Assembly: GCA_043823315.1 (NCBI GenBank)
Contig: JBDRAU010000029.1
Span: forward strand, 1 to 33,090
Source: a bacterium
Lineage (GTDB): Bacteria > Patescibacteriota > UBA1384 > DTJR01
Direction of reading: 5' to 3'
DNA: 33,090 nucleotides
Of this stretch, positions 24,016 to 33,090 are shown in pieces; within the stretch, counting starts at the first letter, position 1; every line of letters begins with the position of its first letter. A program made the position numbers and the translations under genes. The notes below the pieces were generated by a model. It ran no database searches. It saw only the letters and a program-made list of their open reading frames with translations, and had not been told where the DNA came from.

Positions 24016-24984
24016 ATGAAAGCACAAGAGATATTTGATCTGGCGGTAAAAATCGGGATTAAAAACGACCCGCGGGGAAAAGTGGAAGTCGAGAAGTTCT
24101 TGAAATCGGCCAAGAAAGACTACAGTGATCTTCCCGAAAAAAAGAAAAAAGAATTCGATAAGGAAAGATTTACTAATCCCTACTCTGATTCTAGGTTTTT
24201 AGTTGGCGATAAAAACAAACGCGTTAAACGTGTTTTAGTCGGAATCGATCCTGCAACGAGTATGGTTCTTTTGGCCAAAGAGCTCGAGCGCATGGGCAAG
24301 CCGATTGATTTAATCATTGCTCACCATCCAGCCGGAAAGGCGCTAGCCGATCTTCACGAAGTAATGGATCTTCAAACCAGTGTTTACTCCAAGGCAGGTG
24401 TTCCTGAAAACATTGCCGAGGGTATCGTTAGAGAGCAAGTGGAGGATGTCTCGAGGAGAATTGCGCCGGTTAACCACTATGATCCGACGATGGCGGCCGA
24501 GCTTCTCGGGATTTCGATGATCAATATTCACACTCCAGCAGATAACTGTGTTTGGAAATATGTTGAGGATTTTTTAAGCAAGAAAAAGCCGTCTCGGGTT
24601 GGTGAACTTGTTGAAACTCTCAAGGAGATTCCCGAGTACAAAAAAGCGACCGAACTCTCTGCCGGACCAGTTATTTTTTCGGGGAGCGAAAGATCACGTT
24701 GCGGTAAAATTGTTATCTCCGGAATGACGGGTGGAACTTCGGGCAAAGGCAGTGAAAAAATTTATGAACGGATGGCACACTATGGCGTCGGCACGGAAGT
24801 TGCAATGCATGTTTCTGACGAAGATCGTCTCGAAGCGGTCAAGCACTATGTTAACATTGTTATTGCTGGCCACATCGCTTCCGACTCGCTTGGACTTAAT
24901 TTGATCTTAGACGAAGTTGAGAAGAAAAAAATTGAAATTATCCCCTGCTCGGGATTTATAAGGCACTCCAGAGTAAAAAAATAA
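24016..24984 (+). CDS. NIF3-like metal-binding protein
   Basis: DLIIAHHP, HTPADN, AGHIASD motifs. Confidence 0.8.
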   Translation: MKAQEIFDLAVKIGIKNDPRGKVEVEKFLKSAKKDYSDLPEKKKKEFDKERFTNPYSDSRFLVGDKNKRVKRVLVGIDPATSMVLLAKELERMGKPIDLIIAHHPAGKALADLHEVMDLQTSVYSKAGVPENIAEGIVREQVEDVSRRIAPVNHYDPTMAAELLGISMINIHTPADNCVWKYVEDFLSKKKPSRVGELVETLKEIPEYKKATELSAGPVIFSGSERSRCGKIVISGMTGGTSGKGSEKIYERMAHYGVGTEVAMHVSDEDRLEAVKHYVNIVIAGHIASDSLGLNLILDEVEKKKIEIIPCSGFIRHSRVKK

Positions 24985-25015
24985 CTCTACTGTGATATTA
25001 TTAAATAGAGGAACC

Positions 25016-25501
25016 ATGGATTTTTTGGATTTAGTTAAGAAGAGGCATTCGGTCAGGGTTTATCAAAACAAAAGAATTCCTGACGAGGATATTAAATATA
25101 TTTTAGAGTGTGCCAGGCTTTCGCCGAGCGCTTTTAACGTGCAGGATTTTCGTTTTGAAGTTACAGCAAATCGCGAAACAATTGGGAAAATTGCTAAAGC
25201 GACCGAAATGGTTTTCATTAAATCGGCTCCGGCGGTGGTTTTGGCTATCGGACTTGATGAGGAAAATAAATACAATATTACTGACGTCGCCATCGCTCTT
25301 GACCATCTTCAACTTGCGGCGGCGGAGAAAGAAATCGGCTCCTGCTGGGTGGGAACGCTCGGGCATTGGAATGTCGAGGAAGCCTTGAATTTGCCCGAGA
25401 ACGAAAAAGTTTATGCAGTGATGCCGCTTGGCTATGATGCCGGTAAGCTCTTGATCAAAAAGCGTAAAAGTTTCGAAGAACTATTTAAAATAGAAAAATG
25501 A
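25016..25501 (+). CDS. Nitroreductase-family protein
   Basis: RHSVRVY, SPSAFNVQ, IGSCWVG, LGY. Confidence 0.9.
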   Translation: MDFLDLVKKRHSVRVYQNKRIPDEDIKYILECARLSPSAFNVQDFRFEVTANRETIGKIAKATEMVFIKSAPAVVLAIGLDEENKYNITDVAIALDHLQLAAAEKEIGSCWVGTLGHWNVEEALNLPENEKVYAVMPLGYDAGKLLIKKRKSFEELFKIEK

Positions 25502-25932
25502 AGTGTTTATGTAACTGTCCCGAAAATCAAGTCAATGCCAAAGTAGCGAGATTAAATGCTCTTTGGACTTTGGTTTTGGCGATACTCTTTATTTTCGTTT
25601 GGCGATGGACTGCTTATATTTTATTCTTGGACTTTTTCCTAAAAGCAATTTTTCATCCGCGCTATTCACCGATTAGCCGCTTAAATAGCTGGTTCTTAAA
25701 AGTTCTCAAAATTGAGCCGAAACTTATTTTTGCCCCGCCAAAACTTTTTGCTGCTAAGGTGGGTTTTATATTTTCTGCCATAGTCATCATTTTGTATTTG
25801 CTCGATTATATTCTGGCGGCGCAGATTTTTGCCGGAGTTCTAGCCCTTTTTGCATTTTTGGAATTTGCTTTTGAATTCTGTATGGGATGCTGGGCCTACG
25901 AAATAATTCAAAAGTTAAAAGTCAAAAATTAA
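25498..25932 (+). CDS. DUF4395-like membrane protein
   Basis: RLNA, PKLFAAKVG, EFAFEFCMGCW. Confidence 0.8.
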   Translation: MKCLCNCPENQVNAKVARLNALWTLVLAILFIFVWRWTAYILFLDFFLKAIFHPRYSPISRLNSWFLKVLKIEPKLIFAPPKLFAAKVGFIFSAIVIILYLLDYILAAQIFAGVLALFAFLEFAFEFCMGCWAYEIIQKLKVKN

Positions 25933-25949
25933 GGAGTTGCTTTGCAATA

Positions 25950-25978
25950 TTGATTTTTGATGCAAGTTTTGCTAAATT
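25950..25978 (+). promoter_or_regulatory. Putative promoter for 26024 gene
   Basis: TTGATT-17 bp-TAAATT with TG extension. Confidence 0.4.
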
Positions 25979-26023
25979 ATTAAAGCGCGTAAGGCGCTTT
26001 TTAGGTTAACTTCGAGGGAGGAA

Positions 26024-26740
26024 ATGATGGAGCTGAAAGCACAGTTTGACCAAGGGCAGGCAGCAATCGCTCGTCTCGCAAAGGGCGAATACGATCTAGC
26101 GGAAGCAACCAAGATTGGAGACAAGACGCTTGGCTGTATCGACGAGGGCATCGAGTATGCTTGTTATCGGTTGGCCGGTTCGGGACGACTTCTGGGCGAA
26201 GAGCAAGCCGTTGCTCTCGTAGAGAAGTTTGGGCTTGATGTCGGCTATCACTCCGATTGCGGAGCGGTCCGCAAGTATCTTGTGGAAGGCGCTGGGGTTT
26301 TGGATCCGAGCGATGAAGAAGTGGATGCGGAAGCGAAGCGCTGGAGTGAGCAGATCGCCAGGATGGCGAAAACGAAAGCAGTCGAAATGCCGCTGGAGCG
26401 GCCCGAGCATCACATTGCTCTTTGCGCCTATTACGATGGCACGGGACAGATGACTTCGTGCAAAGGCTTGCCGCTCGGGTTTATCGTCAGCCGCACCATT
26501 TTGCCGCATGATTATGCGATAGCAGAAATGGTGACGGCAACCGACATTGCCACGAACCACGGCTTCAACGACCTGTTCACCCACGAACATCCGTTCCTAC
26601 TCGTTGCAGTTGGGCGCGATCAAGATCAGGCCCAAGAGCTCGAAGAAGAACTCAAGACTCATGCTCTGAGGCAGCTGACAGAATCCCAACAGGGTCGCGT
26701 CAAAGTGATCTCGATTCACCTCCAACGGATTCGCCTTTAG
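26024..26740 (+). CDS. Hypothetical protein with carbonic-anhydrase-like CxD...HxxC motif
   Basis: LGCIDEG and YHSDCGA; GGGAGG RBS; own terminator. Confidence 0.7.
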   Translation: MMELKAQFDQGQAAIARLAKGEYDLAEATKIGDKTLGCIDEGIEYACYRLAGSGRLLGEEQAVALVEKFGLDVGYHSDCGAVRKYLVEGAGVLDPSDEEVDAEAKRWSEQIARMAKTKAVEMPLERPEHHIALCAYYDGTGQMTSCKGLPLGFIVSRTILPHDYAIAEMVTATDIATNHGFNDLFTHEHPFLLVAVGRDQDQAQELEEELKTHALRQLTESQQGRVKVISIHLQRIRL

Positions 26741-26748
26741 CGTATTTC

Positions 26749-26785
26749 CGTCCCGACCCGCTCAGCGGCGTCGGGACGTTTGTTT
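26749..26785 (+). terminator. Intrinsic terminator
   Basis: CGTCCCGAC...GTCGGGACG stem followed by TTTGTTT. Confidence 0.7.
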
Positions 26786-26813
26786 CTAAGCCAATCTTTA
26801 AAAACTGCAGATT

Positions 26814-26848
26814 CTGGCATAAAATTGACGGCCGTTAATTTTATGCCG
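26814..26848. repeat. Left 35-bp palindromic repeat (contains the promoter -35)
   Basis: CTGGCATAAAATTGACGGCCGTTAATTTTATGCCG; TTGACG (26825-30), 18 bp, TATAAT (26849-54). Confidence 0.95.
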
Positions 26849-26863
26849 TATAATTAACTGATA

Positions 26864-27403
26864 ATGGAAAATAGAATTTCTTCCTCGGCAAAACTTCTCT
26901 CTGAAATTTTTGATTTAAGCAGAGCAGAATCCTCTCTAGGAGCTTTTTTATTTAGTTTTGGATCAGCTCGAATTCTCTCGCAAAATATGCGCATGACCAA
27001 TGAGCAGTTTAGAAGTTCTTTTCGCGGTCTGCAAAAAAACGGCTATATTAAAAAAATAAATGAGAACCAGTTTCTCATTACACCAAAATCTCTCGCAAAA
27101 GTTCGAGTTTTGAAAATTATCAGTGATGACTGGACTAAGGGAAAATGGGATGGCTGGTGGAGAATTATAGTTTTTGATATTCCAGAAAAGACGAGAAGTC
27201 AACGTAATATCTTTAGATCGCTGCTTAAGCGGAAGGGTTTTATTGGTATTCAAGGAAGCGTTTTTATTGCTCCGTTTGCTGAGTTTGAGGAGCTTGCAAA
27301 ATTAAGAAAAGATTTAAAAATTGAAAAGTATGTTTCATTCTTTAGGTCAAAAAGTGCTGAGACTGACGACGACCGTCTATTAAAGAAAAAGTTTAAATTA
27401 TAG
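26864..27403 (+). CDS. PaaX-like protein (wHTH plus Cas2-like domain)
   Basis: LQKNGYI..FLITPK wHTH-like segment; KWDGWWRIIVFDIPE..R..FR..L...GF..IQGSVF typical of the PaaX central/Cas2-like domain. Confidence 0.85.
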   Translation: MENRISSSAKLLSEIFDLSRAESSLGAFLFSFGSARILSQNMRMTNEQFRSSFRGLQKNGYIKKINENQFLITPKSLAKVRVLKIISDDWTKGKWDGWWRIIVFDIPEKTRSQRNIFRSLLKRKGFIGIQGSVFIAPFAEFEELAKLRKDLKIEKYVSFFRSKSAETDDDRLLKKKFKL

Positions 27404-27404
27404 T

Positions 27405-27439
27405 CGGCATAAAATTGACGGCCGTCAATTTTATGCCAG
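27405..27439. repeat. Right 35-bp palindromic repeat
   Basis: CGGCATAAAATTGACGGCCGTCAATTTTATGCCAG; perfect 32-bp palindrome core; 34/35 identical to the left copy in inverted orientation. Confidence 0.95.
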
Positions 27440-27491
27440 TTTAAATCGATATAAATTTGACTGAGGGGCGATTTCGAGTTACATTTTGGCT

Positions 27492-28106
27492 ATGAGCTTA
27501 AAAAGAGATGTTGAACTATTGTTTGAAGCGGGGACGCTTAGGTTTGTCGATCGGATGTGGAAGCAACTATTCGGGCCCGAACTTCAGAACGATGCCGAGC
27601 ATGCCTTTCGTGTAATTTGGTCAGCACTTATTTTGGCGAAGATGGAACAGCTTTCTGGGCGGAACAGAAAGCAAAATATAGATACAGGAAAATTAATTAA
27701 AATGGCCCTTGTTCATGATCTGGTTGAGAGCCGAACCGGCGACACCCATTATCTTTCTCGCCGCTACACCAAGCGCGATGATATGCTGGCGATAAAAGAT
27801 ATTTTTAAATCAACCTCGCTCGACAAAGAATTTGTTGAGATTTTTAAAGAATACGAGGAGCGAAAAACTCTGGAAGCGAAAATTGTCAAAGATGCCGATA
27901 ATTTGGATATTGATATTGAAACTCGTGAAGTGGAGTACCGCGGTGGCAAAATTCCGCGAATGTGGAGAAAATTTAGAACAACTGCAAGAGCAGATTTTTA
28001 CACCAAATCGGCCAAGAAGCTAGCGCAAGCGGTTGTGAAGGCCGATCCGAACGACTGGCATCAGCTAGGGAGAAACCGGTTTACGACGGGGGATTGGAAG
28101 AAGTGA
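27492..28106 (+). CDS. HD-domain hydrolase (YfbR/HDDC2-like)
   Basis: AEHAFRV, ALVHDLVESRTGD, VKDADNLD. Confidence 0.88.
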   Translation: MSLKRDVELLFEAGTLRFVDRMWKQLFGPELQNDAEHAFRVIWSALILAKMEQLSGRNRKQNIDTGKLIKMALVHDLVESRTGDTHYLSRRYTKRDDMLAIKDIFKSTSLDKEFVEIFKEYEERKTLEAKIVKDADNLDIDIETREVEYRGGKIPRMWRKFRTTARADFYTKSAKKLAQAVVKADPNDWHQLGRNRFTTGDWKK

Positions 28107-28355: not shown

Positions 28356-29078
28356 ATGTCGGGTATTATCAAACGGCCGAGGAGTATCATTCCGGCCTGT
28401 GATGTTGCGACTATCGCCGAGCTAGGCAAGCTGGTTCAAGCGACCCACAATGTTGTGGGGACCGGTGGCTACAAGGTGGACGGCCCGGGAAGCTGTGTGC
28501 TTAGGGTCGGTCTAGAAGCAGCTGTGGCAGAGGTTCGGAATTGGTCCGACCTGCCGATCATCTACGATCACCAGAAGGCGGCGACGGACATACCGGATAT
28601 GGGTGTCAACTTCGCCAGGAACTTGGAGGGGCTGGTCGATGCGGCCATCCTCTTCCCGTTCACCGGCCCCGAGACCCAGACGGCGTGGACCAAGGCGCTA
28701 CAGGACGTCGGGATCGTCCCGATCATCGGTGGCGAGATGACCCATCCCGGGTTCAACGAGATCGAGGGCGGGTATATCGCGACCGGCGCTCCGAAGCGCA
28801 TGTTCGAACTGGCTGTCACAGATGGTGTGCGCGACTTCGTGGTTCCCGGCAACAAGCCAATCGTGGTCGCTGCTTGCCGAGAATTGCTCGAAGAGCTACT
28901 CGGAGATGAGCCGTTTGATCTGTACGCCCCCGGCTTCATCAAGCAGGGTGGCGTGATTTCAGATGCTGGCCAAGTCGCTGGTGATCGCTTCCACGGCATT
29001 GTCGGCCGCGGGATCTATGAGGCCGAAGACATGCGCGTGGCTGCCGAGGAGCACTGCAGTCAGATCGTCGCCGTCTAG
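28356..29078 (+). CDS. pyrF: Orotidine 5'-phosphate decarboxylase (divergent)
   Basis: IIPACDV, GYKV, YDHQKAATDIP (variant of DxKxxDI), APG..QGG, IVGRGIY; adjacent to an OPRT-like gene. Confidence 0.85.
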   Translation: MSGIIKRPRSIIPACDVATIAELGKLVQATHNVVGTGGYKVDGPGSCVLRVGLEAAVAEVRNWSDLPIIYDHQKAATDIPDMGVNFARNLEGLVDAAILFPFTGPETQTAWTKALQDVGIVPIIGGEMTHPGFNEIEGGYIATGAPKRMFELAVTDGVRDFVVPGNKPIVVAACRELLEELLGDEPFDLYAPGFIKQGGVISDAGQVAGDRFHGIVGRGIYEAEDMRVAAEEHCSQIVAV

Positions 29079-29131
29079 GCGGCACGGCAAATAGACGCAA
29101 TTCTCCCGAAGTGGAGAGAGGAGGAGAGGAT

Positions 29132-29863
29132 ATGTCTACGATTTTGACTTTCACACGACCGGATCAGCTCGATCAGATCATGCCGGGCATGACGCTCGGT
29201 CAGGCTGAGTTTGAGCACATCATGAAGATGCTCGGTCTGATGTGGACGTACGATGGAGAGCCCTGCGAAGAGAAATCACATGCCCAGCTCGCATCGCCTA
29301 TGCACTCCAACGGGTTCTTCGACGTCGGATCGCTGATGAAGGGGTATCCCGAAGTACGTTGGAACTTGGCCCAGCAGCTTGTGGATCGCTTCAGTGCAAA
29401 TCAGGCGGGCCCGATTCACGGAGTAATCGGCGCTCCGACTTCCTCGACCGATCTCGCTGGTGACGTTGCTGAGATTCTCCGCGTCAGGCACTTTATCCTC
29501 GACAAGATAGAGGGTGGTATTGTCTGGCGTGAAGACCAGGAGAATATCCTGGGTTACGAGTGTCTTCTGCGCGTCGAGGAACTGATGACCACGGCCAGCT
29601 CTTGCGAGAAGGCGATGGAGGCGGTACTGGCCGGCAATCCCGGATGGGGCGGTACCTACTACCCGATCGTCTACACGATCGTGGATCGCTCTGACCCGGC
29701 TGCTGGCCCGCTGTCCGTGCGCGGATCTACCGTGGATTCACTCTTCCGCTACGAGGTCCGCAACTTCGATCCGGCTGTTTGCCCCTACTGTGCCGTCGGG
29801 TCGCCGGCACTCAAGCCCAAGGAAAATCGCGAGATCTTCTTCCCGAACGCGGTCGCCGCCTGA
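29132..29863 (+). CDS. pyrE: Orotate phosphoribosyltransferase-like type I PRTase
   Basis: LASPMHSNGFF, PRPP-loop variant LRVEELMTT, IVDRS, C-terminal CPYC; follows pyrF. Confidence 0.75.
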   Translation: MSTILTFTRPDQLDQIMPGMTLGQAEFEHIMKMLGLMWTYDGEPCEEKSHAQLASPMHSNGFFDVGSLMKGYPEVRWNLAQQLVDRFSANQAGPIHGVIGAPTSSTDLAGDVAEILRVRHFILDKIEGGIVWREDQENILGYECLLRVEELMTTASSCEKAMEAVLAGNPGWGGTYYPIVYTIVDRSDPAAGPLSVRGSTVDSLFRYEVRNFDPAVCPYCAVGSPALKPKENREIFFPNAVAA

Positions 29864-29932
29864 CCCCCATTTCCAGTCGAGACAATTCAATTTTGCGTTC
29901 CACCCGCAAAATCCCACGTCCCGACTACGCAC

Positions 29933-29959
29933 AGGTCCGCCCTCCCCGGCGGGCCTTTT
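29933..29959 (+). terminator. Intrinsic terminator
   Basis: AGGTCCGCC-loop-GGCGGGCCT followed by TTT. Confidence 0.7.
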
Positions 29960-30120
29960 GCTTTCTAGTAAAGCTATTCATATTTTTTAATCTGTAATCT
30001 GCCACTTCATTTAATAACTTATATTTAGGTTTTGGATCCCCCAAAACCGGATCGACGTCAAGTGGCAAGAATTTAATTTGCTAAACACAGGTTCGCTTTG
30101 CTACAATTTAATAAGAAAGT

Positions 30121-31689: not shown

Positions 31690-33090
<1,401 letters not shown>

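Follow-up and report, generated by a model that had tools for sequence, protein, structure and literature searches.

The window analysed here is the whole 33,090-nucleotide stretch of contig JBDRAU010000029.1, from a tiny groundwater-dwelling bacterium of the Patescibacteriota, and the subject of this work is a small cassette within it: a gene for a 179-residue protein with a winged-helix domain and a Cas2-like domain, lying between two copies of a 32-bp palindrome. A gene placed between its own private palindromes is the rule for a very large gene family. The family is apparently undescribed: no description of it or of its both-end arrangement was found in the literature, subscription journals and supplements being outside the reach of the search. 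In our reading the cassette encodes a homodimeric protein that represses its own gene from conserved private binding sites on either side of it, two in all; we give this reading an even chance of being correct.

The mechanism that we infer, from binding and repression through cooperation of the sites to the role of the module for the cell, starts from a dimer predicted by modelling. A winged helix-turn-helix (wHTH) protein dimerised through its Cas2-like domain would recognise its own private palindrome of 32–36 bp. The upstream copy, which covers the -35 box and ends where the -10 box begins, would impose negative autoregulation, and the copy past the stop codon would be an equally constrained second binding site. 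The two bound sites would cooperate around the ~590-bp gene, either by looping, which would tighten repression, or as protein roadblocks sealing the cassette from transcription entering or leaving it. The CG-RY-CG centre of the palindromes would be read by a conserved part of the protein and the private arms by a variable part.

Private palindromes at both ends of the gene

The genome from which the window derives (G000; 805 kb in 89 contigs, 82% complete) holds eight relatives, namely seven short forms of 179–193 amino acids and one long form. Each of the seven short paralogs has its own, different palindrome at both ends, for example TGCACTTTTGAGACGA followed by TCGTCTCAAAAGTGCA on contig C78 and ATACCATTTTTCGCGA followed by TCGCGAAAAATGGTAT on contig C38 (C denotes contigs and L loci; P59, P78 and P81 are the paralogs on C59, C78 and C81, and W type is the palindrome type of the window's cassette). 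The sequence-only reading, made from the letters of the window, had raised the possibility that homologs carry gene-specific palindromes at both ends, and this is borne out beyond the source genome. Scanning a single genome for each species yielded 545 relatives, and 80 loci were kept; the foreign loci are 6-kb samples, most of the genomes are incomplete metagenome-assembled genomes (MAGs) and the relatives are not independent. They are mostly labelled as Patescibacteria or candidate phyla within this group, with a few MAGs labelled Gammaproteobacteria or Bdellovibrionales. The best 24-mer common to both flanks agrees at 20 or more of 24 positions in 50 of 76 foreign family genes and in 6 of 439 other open reading frames (ORFs) of the same loci. 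Both ends are palindromic (at least 11 of 16 pairs) and alike at 24 or more of 32 positions for 51 out of 82 genes, of which 75 are foreign and 7 own. Among the eight relatives examined more closely (seven of the same family, including G001 of the same genus, 92% complete, and G009 of the same order), G002, G004 and G009 provided nine cassettes for inspection, and all nine lie between paired palindromes.

Searched with a family profile, 1.84 billion cluster representatives gave 7,282 clusters at E ≤1e-3 and 5,598 at E ≤1e-10. The family has at least this latter number of clusters at 50% identity, the best 150 being 170–241 amino acids long. Tandem arrays of cassettes were considered and set aside, a second family member lying within 3 kb at only 2 of the 80 loci.

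In the window (Table 1) the downstream palindrome reads GGCATAAAATTGACGG followed by CCGTCAATTTTATGCC and begins 2 nt past the TAG stop codon (27401–27403). The upstream copy differs from it by a single change, C to T at 26836, which produces its G·T mismatch. The -35 box TTGACG lies inside the upstream palindrome and the -10 box abuts the right edge of the palindrome. The ATG (26864) stands 9 nt after the -10 box; therefore the mRNA of the cassette is probably leaderless or nearly so. These palindromes and the promoter with its perfect TATAAT had been pointed out from the window alone and are confirmed, whereas two further claims of the same origin hold for the window and not for the family at large. 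The 35-nt units are indeed 97% complementary in inverted orientation, but the pairs of copies in the family that can be read for orientation are mostly direct (13 direct, 4 weakly inverted with the window included, and 41 ambiguous). The minus-strand TATAAT at the right copy is likewise present (27402–27397, with a 20-nt spacer and overlapping the last codons of the gene; our promoter scan admitted spacers of 16–18 nt only and hence did not list it), but it is no clear family feature, as a -10-type box faces back into the gene at 11 of 58 downstream copies versus 129 of 1160 background positions.

The palindrome had been thought open to refutation as a common genome-wide repeat, and it is not one. 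Its 16-nt half-site has five matches in the window at up to 3 mismatches, four of them within the two palindromes; in 100 shuffles of the window the mean was 0.46 and five matches were never reached. Elsewhere in the 805-kb assembly the W-type half-site has no further sites at up to 2 mismatches.

Throughout the family the positions 1–3 from the centre are R, G and C on each side, which gives the CG-RY-CG centre, mostly CGATCG or CGGCCG. Position 4 is mostly A or G, positions 7–11 are nearly always A or T, and positions 12–17 are variable and constitute the private arms. A -10 box (at least 5 of 6 matches) faces the gene at 27 of 58 upstream copies, as compared with 129 of 1160 background positions (11%), and at several loci the ends of the arms themselves form the -35 and -10 boxes. 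Mismatches of the G·T and A·C types are balanced (28 versus 38 in upstream copies, 33 versus 27 in downstream copies), and thus there is no sign of selection for an RNA hairpin. Two known kinds of module were rejected on this architecture. Xer dif/pdif modules have conserved recombinase-binding arms and a variable centre; the present family shows the reverse, a conserved centre and private arms. An integron gene cassette is a promoterless ORF with a single 3' attC, whereas the window gene has a strong promoter and palindromes at both ends.

Both copies are under constraint at the level of sequence across 12–30% divergence. The C78 cassette and its ortholog in G004 encode proteins 78% identical, and their upstream palindromes are identical and their downstream palindromes agree at all but one position, as islands within otherwise unalignable intergenic DNA. 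A metagenome contig 88% identical to window positions 24823–27613 (326 mismatches) contains the same cassette in the same context; both palindromes are kept at 32 of 32 positions, and the outermost flanking pair shows a concerted change, CT...AG having become CC...GG. The arms differ between the C27 cassette and its G004 ortholog at L134 (72% identical), so that specificity can shift.

The encoded protein

The protein is predicted to consist of a wHTH domain followed by a ferredoxin-fold domain of the Cas2 kind. The AlphaFold2 model, built with a 54-sequence alignment, has a mean predicted local distance difference test score (pLDDT) of 90.4; its wHTH part would be formed by helices 7–20, 32–41 and 46–58 and by wing strands 62–72. 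In Pfam, PaaX_M (PF20803) matches residues 93–171 with an E-value of 9.8e-22 (77.3 bits at a cut-off of 24) and CRISPR_Cas2 (PF09827) matches with 2.8e-7 (31.1 bits at a cut-off of 23.8). The NCBIfam model cas2 (TIGR01573) is also passed, with 29.5 bits at a cut-off of 24.5, and several Cas2 models of PADLOC match with E-values down to 3.4e-9, all of them adaptation models with no effector system. The designation PaaX/Cas2-like in the sequence-only reading is supported by these matches as far as the domains are concerned. A true PaaX is ruled out: the score with the PaaX equivalog TIGR02277 is 27.7 bits, far below the cut-off of 264.55, and PaaX_C has no match in the Pfam scan, the protein stopping at residue 179, soon past the Cas2-like domain.

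Among the fold matches given by Foldseek, PaaX of E. coli (8a39) comes first (E 4.2e-5) and 3l09 next, while 3kfw ranks lower; the C-terminal domain is matched by Cas2 chains, and VapD structures are also among the matches. The best sequence match among solved structures is again 8a39 (E 7.4e-4), the alignment spanning only residues 45–175 of the 316 of PaaX. PaaX is a repressor that binds palindromic operators. The protein of E. coli W, which represses phenylacetate catabolism, has the same two-domain core of a winged helix and then a Cas2-like ferredoxin domain; it differs from the window protein in length (316 versus 179 amino acids) and in that the window gene is bracketed by a palindrome at both ends. 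A winged helix with a small alpha/beta ferredoxin-like oligomerisation domain is also found in the Lrp/AsnC family (feast/famine regulatory proteins, FFRP), but the fold matches to 2cyy, 2znz, 2p6t and 8q90 are weak (template modelling score about 0.27), there is no sequence-family match and the operator architecture is unlike that of the window.

In the alignment to 8a39 the segment LLLSEGLD of PaaX stands opposite VFDIPE of the cassette family. Asp105 of this segment is invariant in 54 of 54 aligned members and, on the alignment, falls on the FDLP motif of Cas2 6jhz; Trp95, Trp99, Arg114, Gln130 and Ser132 are invariant in all 54 as well.

The homodimer model gave an interface score (ipSAE) of 0.46 versus 0.00 for the best of three controls, with the predicted interface in the Cas2-like domain. 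Of 30 proteins solved as pairs, 20 attain this level, as does 1 of 23 solved as single chains. The modelled dimers share at least 90% of contacts between runs, with a partner pLDDT of at least 78. It may be the similarity to Cas2 dimers of solved structure that lets the model pass. The resemblance to Cas2 thus covers both the family cut-offs passed by the C-terminal domain and a predicted dimer formed through that domain, and the cassette as a whole resembles a CRISPR unit in having two partly palindromic repeats of ~32–36 bp around a unique segment. It differs in the fusion of the Cas2-like domain to a winged helix, in the number of repeats, which is only two, and in having the gene itself as the "spacer". 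The region examined showed no CRISPR array. As had been noticed for the window, paa and cas families are missing among the neighbouring ORFs scanned (~4 kb around the window cassette and the paralogs). Cas1 (PF01867) has no match in the source genome, at its 82% completeness; the same search, run as a control on 14 well-known genomes, had matches in 7 of them.

As for HUH/Tyr motifs, no His or Tyr is invariant or near-invariant in the 54-sequence alignment. In Pfam the cassette protein matches neither transposases nor integrases, PHROG gives no match either, and a collection of 2.9 million viral contigs contains a single relative. A phage origin was set aside on the latter two results.

Long form, distribution and solitary palindromes

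The long form (~235–257 amino acids) is a single-copy core gene between the genes of D-Ala-D-Ala carboxypeptidase and RNase III, in the same position in the source genome and in 8 of 8 relatives examined. In 7 of these 9 genomes a short TTGACGATCGT-like element, exact or a one-base variant and amounting to an abridged form of the palindrome core, is located upstream of its start; the TTGAC within this element can be read as a putative -35 box of the long form. The long form has no downstream palindrome copy and no Cas2 model match in PADLOC. Probably this stable regulator represents the ancestor of the bracketed short forms.

Table 1. Features of the cassette and its surroundings (window positions unless a locus is named) and short forms per genome
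Feature	Position	Strand	Basis or remark
Upstream palindrome copy	unit 26814-26848, core 32 bp 26816-26847		15/16 pairs, one G·T mismatch
Downstream palindrome copy	unit 27405-27439, core 32 bp 27406-27437		perfect, 16/16 pairs
Cassette promoter: TTGACG (26825-26830), 18-nt spacer, TATAAT (26849-26854)	26825-26854	+	promoter scan 11/12
Cassette gene, 179-aa winged-helix and Cas2-like protein	26864-27403 including stop	+	ORF, Pfam, model
Winged helix-turn-helix domain, residues 7-72	26882-27079	+	AlphaFold2 model
Cas2-like ferredoxin-fold domain, residues 93-171	27140-27376	+	Pfam, model; predicted dimer interface
Promoter of the HD-domain gene: TTGACT, 17-nt spacer, TACATT	27457-27485	+	scan 9/12
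Terminator-like hairpin: GTCCCGAC ... GTCGGGAC and T-rich tail	26750-26787	+	read by eye
Long-form PaaX-like gene	L129:4029-4751 (G000 C82); L139-L146 in relatives		
Short forms, G000			7
Short forms, G004			7 and one decayed fragment
Short forms, G002 and G009			1 each
Short forms, G001 (same genus, 92% complete), G003, G005, G006 and G007			none found

In the tree the paralogs of the source genome interleave with orthologs of G004 (P78 with L135, P59 with L133, P81 with L132). They are therefore old, and the pattern is that of vertical descent with loss. Some paralogs keep their neighbourhood between genomes. Decayed members with in-frame stops are found at G004:C15:123334-123582 (one TAA) and G028:C13:2222-2626 (one TGA and two TAA), which shows that cassettes decay in place. 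The neighbours of the cassettes differ across paralogs and include genes of DnaB, FtsK and RNase J, SLT-domain and HD-domain proteins and unknowns.

Several sites can be compared with relatives that have no cassette there. In G001, which has no cassette at the site matching that of the window, the 237-aa gene on the left overlaps the start of the HD gene, with no palindrome nearby. The site of the C59 cassette is 108 bp long in G001 and similarly short in G004, without a palindrome, and the gap between the FtsK and RNase J genes is ~25 bp in G003 where the source genome has a 1.6-kb insert. An empty site with a single palindrome, to be looked for according to the sequence-only reading, did not turn up at the sites in G001, G003 and G004; this is weak evidence, as ~70% DNA identity leaves the boundaries of the insertions undefined. 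No target-site duplication is visible by eye, and neither identical cassettes within a genome nor identical copies in different contexts were found. No joint attributable to excision or inversion was seen in the assembled contigs of four sequencing runs, in which rare forms cannot appear. Run X3 has two joints in single contigs, the shorter side covering 30–35 letters and the middle being unknown, which may come from paralogs or relatives. The RNA contigs of run X9 on 26938–27281 have 13–15 differences each and come from a relative; with DNA carry-over possible, they were not used as evidence of expression.

Twenty palindromes with at least 14 of 16 pairs occur in the source genome and none in its block-shuffled version. 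The CG-RY-CG centre is present in 15 of them, 8 flanking cassettes and 7 solitary (solos); two others, with a TGTACA centre, flank the C81 cassette, which brings the class to 17 of 20, 10 flanking and 7 solo. Solos of the P59 type are situated at three further loci, other types have one each, and the remaining solos match no cassette in the assembly; the numbers per type range from 0 to 3, with 0 for the W type. Six regions of G004 were inspected and contain eight perfect solos (16/16), two of which have ~10 nt of flanking sequence in common at either end and are located between genes that converge. A loose core motif is more frequent than its backward control in the source genome (22 versus 13) and in G004 (57 versus 25), the figures being 11 versus 13 in G001, 9 versus 20 in G003 and 11 versus 8 in G002; G007, without a short cassette, has 39 versus 29. 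The genome with locus L041 contains only the two flanking copies of the palindrome of that cassette. Rfam detected one tRNA only on the contigs with solo palindromes.

Two different perfect solos are found 64–190 bp apart at several loci (G000 C19:3393-3489; G004 C3:15613-15835, C7:14391-14601 and C9:3256-3427). They could be hot spots or remains of neighbouring cassettes. Contig C2 of the source genome ends inside a palindrome (C2:2239-2270), and Logan contigs of run X2 end or begin within 27406–27437. Since assemblies break at palindromes, the counts of cassettes and solos in fragmented MAGs are probably underestimates.

On its left side the cassette adjoins a GC-rich gene for a 238-aa protein, which ends with a terminator-like hairpin outside the cassette; the terminator scan allows loops of 3–8 nt and therefore did not list this hairpin with its 12-nt loop. 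The gene (26024–26740, 55% GC) is 37% identical to an AT-richer positional counterpart in G001, while the genes flanking it match G001 at 66–77% DNA identity, and it looks like a replacement by a foreign copy. Islands of 52–62% GC are present at 26001–26800, 28400–30000 and 32000–32800, the rest of the window having mostly 35–45% GC. On the right side, the gene with an HD_3 domain match (Pfam) has its own promoter starting 20 bp past the downstream palindrome, and its core promoter is therefore independent of the palindrome.

Two observations concern the surroundings of other paralogs. By the C59 cassette a ~170-nt non-coding stretch (L126:3700-3871) upstream of a 434-aa gene is conserved over ~90–170 nt at 72–87% identity in G001, G004, G002 and G007, nearby intergenic DNA not being conserved. 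It has an internal inverted repeat and no Rfam match at E ≤0.01, and is a candidate structured leader or small RNA. On C72 an ORF with GIY-YIG and Fic/DOC matches (L123:1930-2703) lies in a ~4.6-kb stretch absent from G001; the C72 cassette is in the same stretch and is therefore part of a larger variable island.

Proposed autorepression and the competing readings

The reading of the cassette as a two-site autorepressor accounts for the overlap of palindrome and promoter, the private arms, the conservation of both copies and the lack of an RNA signature, as well as for the common centre, which would be inherited from the long-form regulator. The features to be expected of a looping autorepressor are an operator over the core promoter, present here as judged from the letters, a second conserved site, also present, and an oligomer able to bridge the two; what was modelled is a dimer. 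The looping repressors of the lac (O1/O2), gal (OE/OI) and deo systems likewise use a promoter operator and a similar one a few hundred bp downstream. The cassette differs from them in that the DNA looped out would be precisely the gene of the repressor itself, the sites are near-identical 32-bp palindromes and the arrangement is family-wide. Of the two alternatives offered by the sequence-only reading, autorepression fits best, owing to the promoter overlap and the conservation of both copies; the other, a one-gene element acting on its own ends, has gained some support because of the patchy distribution, the solo palindromes and the retained Cas2 signature residues.

A number of points weigh against autorepression. 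A regulator of the W type, with sites only at its own gene, has no evident output, and the downstream copy cannot generally control a neighbour: of 51 foreign loci, 25 have a convergent downstream neighbour, 23 have one on the same strand as the cassette and 3 have none that was found, which makes 25 of 48 convergent. The family keeps a Cas2 signature that is absent from true PaaX, namely FDIPE with the invariant Asp105 and a Q-x-S-V motif, and these residues hint at more than a role in dimerisation. The differences between the two copies of one gene comprise 23 compensated doubles, 18 uncompensated doubles and 140 singles; symmetry kept at variable positions is not predicted by a plain operator. 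Template switching at quasi-palindromes could produce such symmetry neutrally. Similarly, when the G004 solos are compared with the cassette copies, their arms show symmetric changes in the A/T tracts. Covariation between protein columns and arm positions (54 sequences, with shared ancestry as a confounder) distributed the top 60 pairs as 25 versus 35 over the two domains and did not single out the recognition helix. Most solos stand just past stop codons or beside terminator-like hairpins and not at promoters, and the short form looks all-or-none in close relatives, with seven in the source genome, seven in G004 and none found in G001. Autorepression explains neither the solos near 3' ends nor the fact that short form and solos come and go together.

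The points left unexplained keep alive a reading similar to the REPIN/RAYT partnership with a protein of Cas2 fold, which we consider possible though rather unlikely. The protein would act enzymatically on the palindromes, probably as hairpin or cruciform DNA at CG-RY-CG, and would create, maintain, duplicate or move them. The flanking copies would be the ends of the element or a duplicated target, and the solos dispersal products or excision footprints. In both systems a short gene is flanked by cognate palindromes, each paralog has its own type, and a few solos are intergenic or near 3' ends. This reading is favoured by the large share of this class among the long palindromes of the source genome, by the P59-type solos at three loci and the eight perfect solos of G004, two of them with common flanks. 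The loose motif is in excess where short cassettes exist (G000 and G004) and not in G001 or G003, although G007 has a mild excess without any short cassette. In relatives, the genes on either side of a cassette adjoin each other or overlap; the readable copies are mostly direct repeats and the two ends evolve in concert. The Cas2 signature including Asp105 is kept, and the stable long form matches no Cas2 model.

Against an enzyme of this kind, the protein has no HUH/Y motif, no IS200-like domain and no transposase or integrase match, and Cas1 was not found in the source genome. The empty sites examined contain no palindrome, a target-site duplication is not visible by eye, and the contigs, which cannot reveal rare forms, showed no excision or inversion joint. 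REPIN/RAYT systems have tens to hundreds of dispersed copies compared with 0–3 solos per type here, and in the present family the upstream palindrome doubles as promoter. With no two identical cassettes per genome and with old paralogs, some in conserved neighbourhoods, any mobility must be rare. REPIN/RAYT systems, too, are described as largely vertically inherited and long persistent (PMC3337134).

Three other readings are improbable. A single-chain unit resembling a toxin-antitoxin or defence system, in which the wHTH domain represses the gene of a Cas2/VapD-like nuclease until a trigger arrives, would add to the autorepressor the output that it lacks. The cassette is self-contained, private operators would prevent cross-talk among the seven paralogs, and the patchy distribution with decayed copies (one stop in the G004 member, three in that of G028) and the Cas2 and VapD structures among the fold matches suit such a unit; Cas2-like proteins are mentioned among the toxin RNases of integron cassettes (PMC3710099). 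Yet the PADLOC matches are to Cas2 adaptation models only, PHROG and viral contigs give respectively no match and one relative, and the second palindrome is left without explanation.

The protein could also be a local regulator of its neighbours, with the downstream copy serving the next gene as promoter-operator and the upstream one perhaps acting on a divergent gene, which we likewise regard as unlikely. A -10 box (at least 5 of 6) faces the next gene at 17 of 58 downstream copies against the 11% background, the direct repeat includes promoter-like flanks in some pairs (for instance L013 and L075), and a solo of the source genome at C6:4500 looks like the promoter-operator of a dihydrouridine-synthase-like gene, named from its translation. 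On the other hand, the convergent half of the downstream neighbours leaves nothing to drive, the HD gene of the window has a promoter of its own and the neighbours are unrelated across paralogs. That the downstream copy has no protein partner and serves solely as an RNA stem-loop derived from the operator, for termination or for 3' stabilisation, is very improbable: it would be transcribed at the 3' end of the mRNA with a 14–16-bp stem (minimum free energy -22.4 kcal/mol and z-score -3.4 for the surrounding 91-nt stretch), solos lie near gene 3' ends and compensated changes keep symmetry, but no U-tract follows the window hairpin, the plus-strand terminator scan did not call it, G·T is not favoured over A·C, the loop-forming centre is kept palindromic family-wide, and arm sequence, not just pairing, is conserved across genera. 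Regulation of neighbours and plain termination are each contradicted as general explanations.

The family has up to 7–9 members in very small genomes of 0.7–1.0 Mb. As the NCBI cas2 model passes on cassette proteins, these may be annotated as Cas2 in genomes without a CRISPR system. With one protein to one private palindrome, the family offers thousands of natural protein–DNA pairs, which could yield a recognition code or orthogonal, self-insulated repressor–operator parts. A more doubtful prospect is that the cassettes form a new class of protein–palindrome replicator units in bacteria with small genomes, mostly Patescibacteria, with a winged-helix enzyme of Cas2 fold that nicks, resolves or copies its private perfect palindrome at CG-RY-CG. 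Through such an enzyme the palindromes would stay perfect, become duplicated on both sides of its gene and give rise to the solos. The few proteins that maintain their own extragenic palindromes would then be known from a second fold, unrelated to the first. The units could then be a free-living cousin of the relationship between Cas2 and the repeats of CRISPR arrays, and would bear on the origin of that association.

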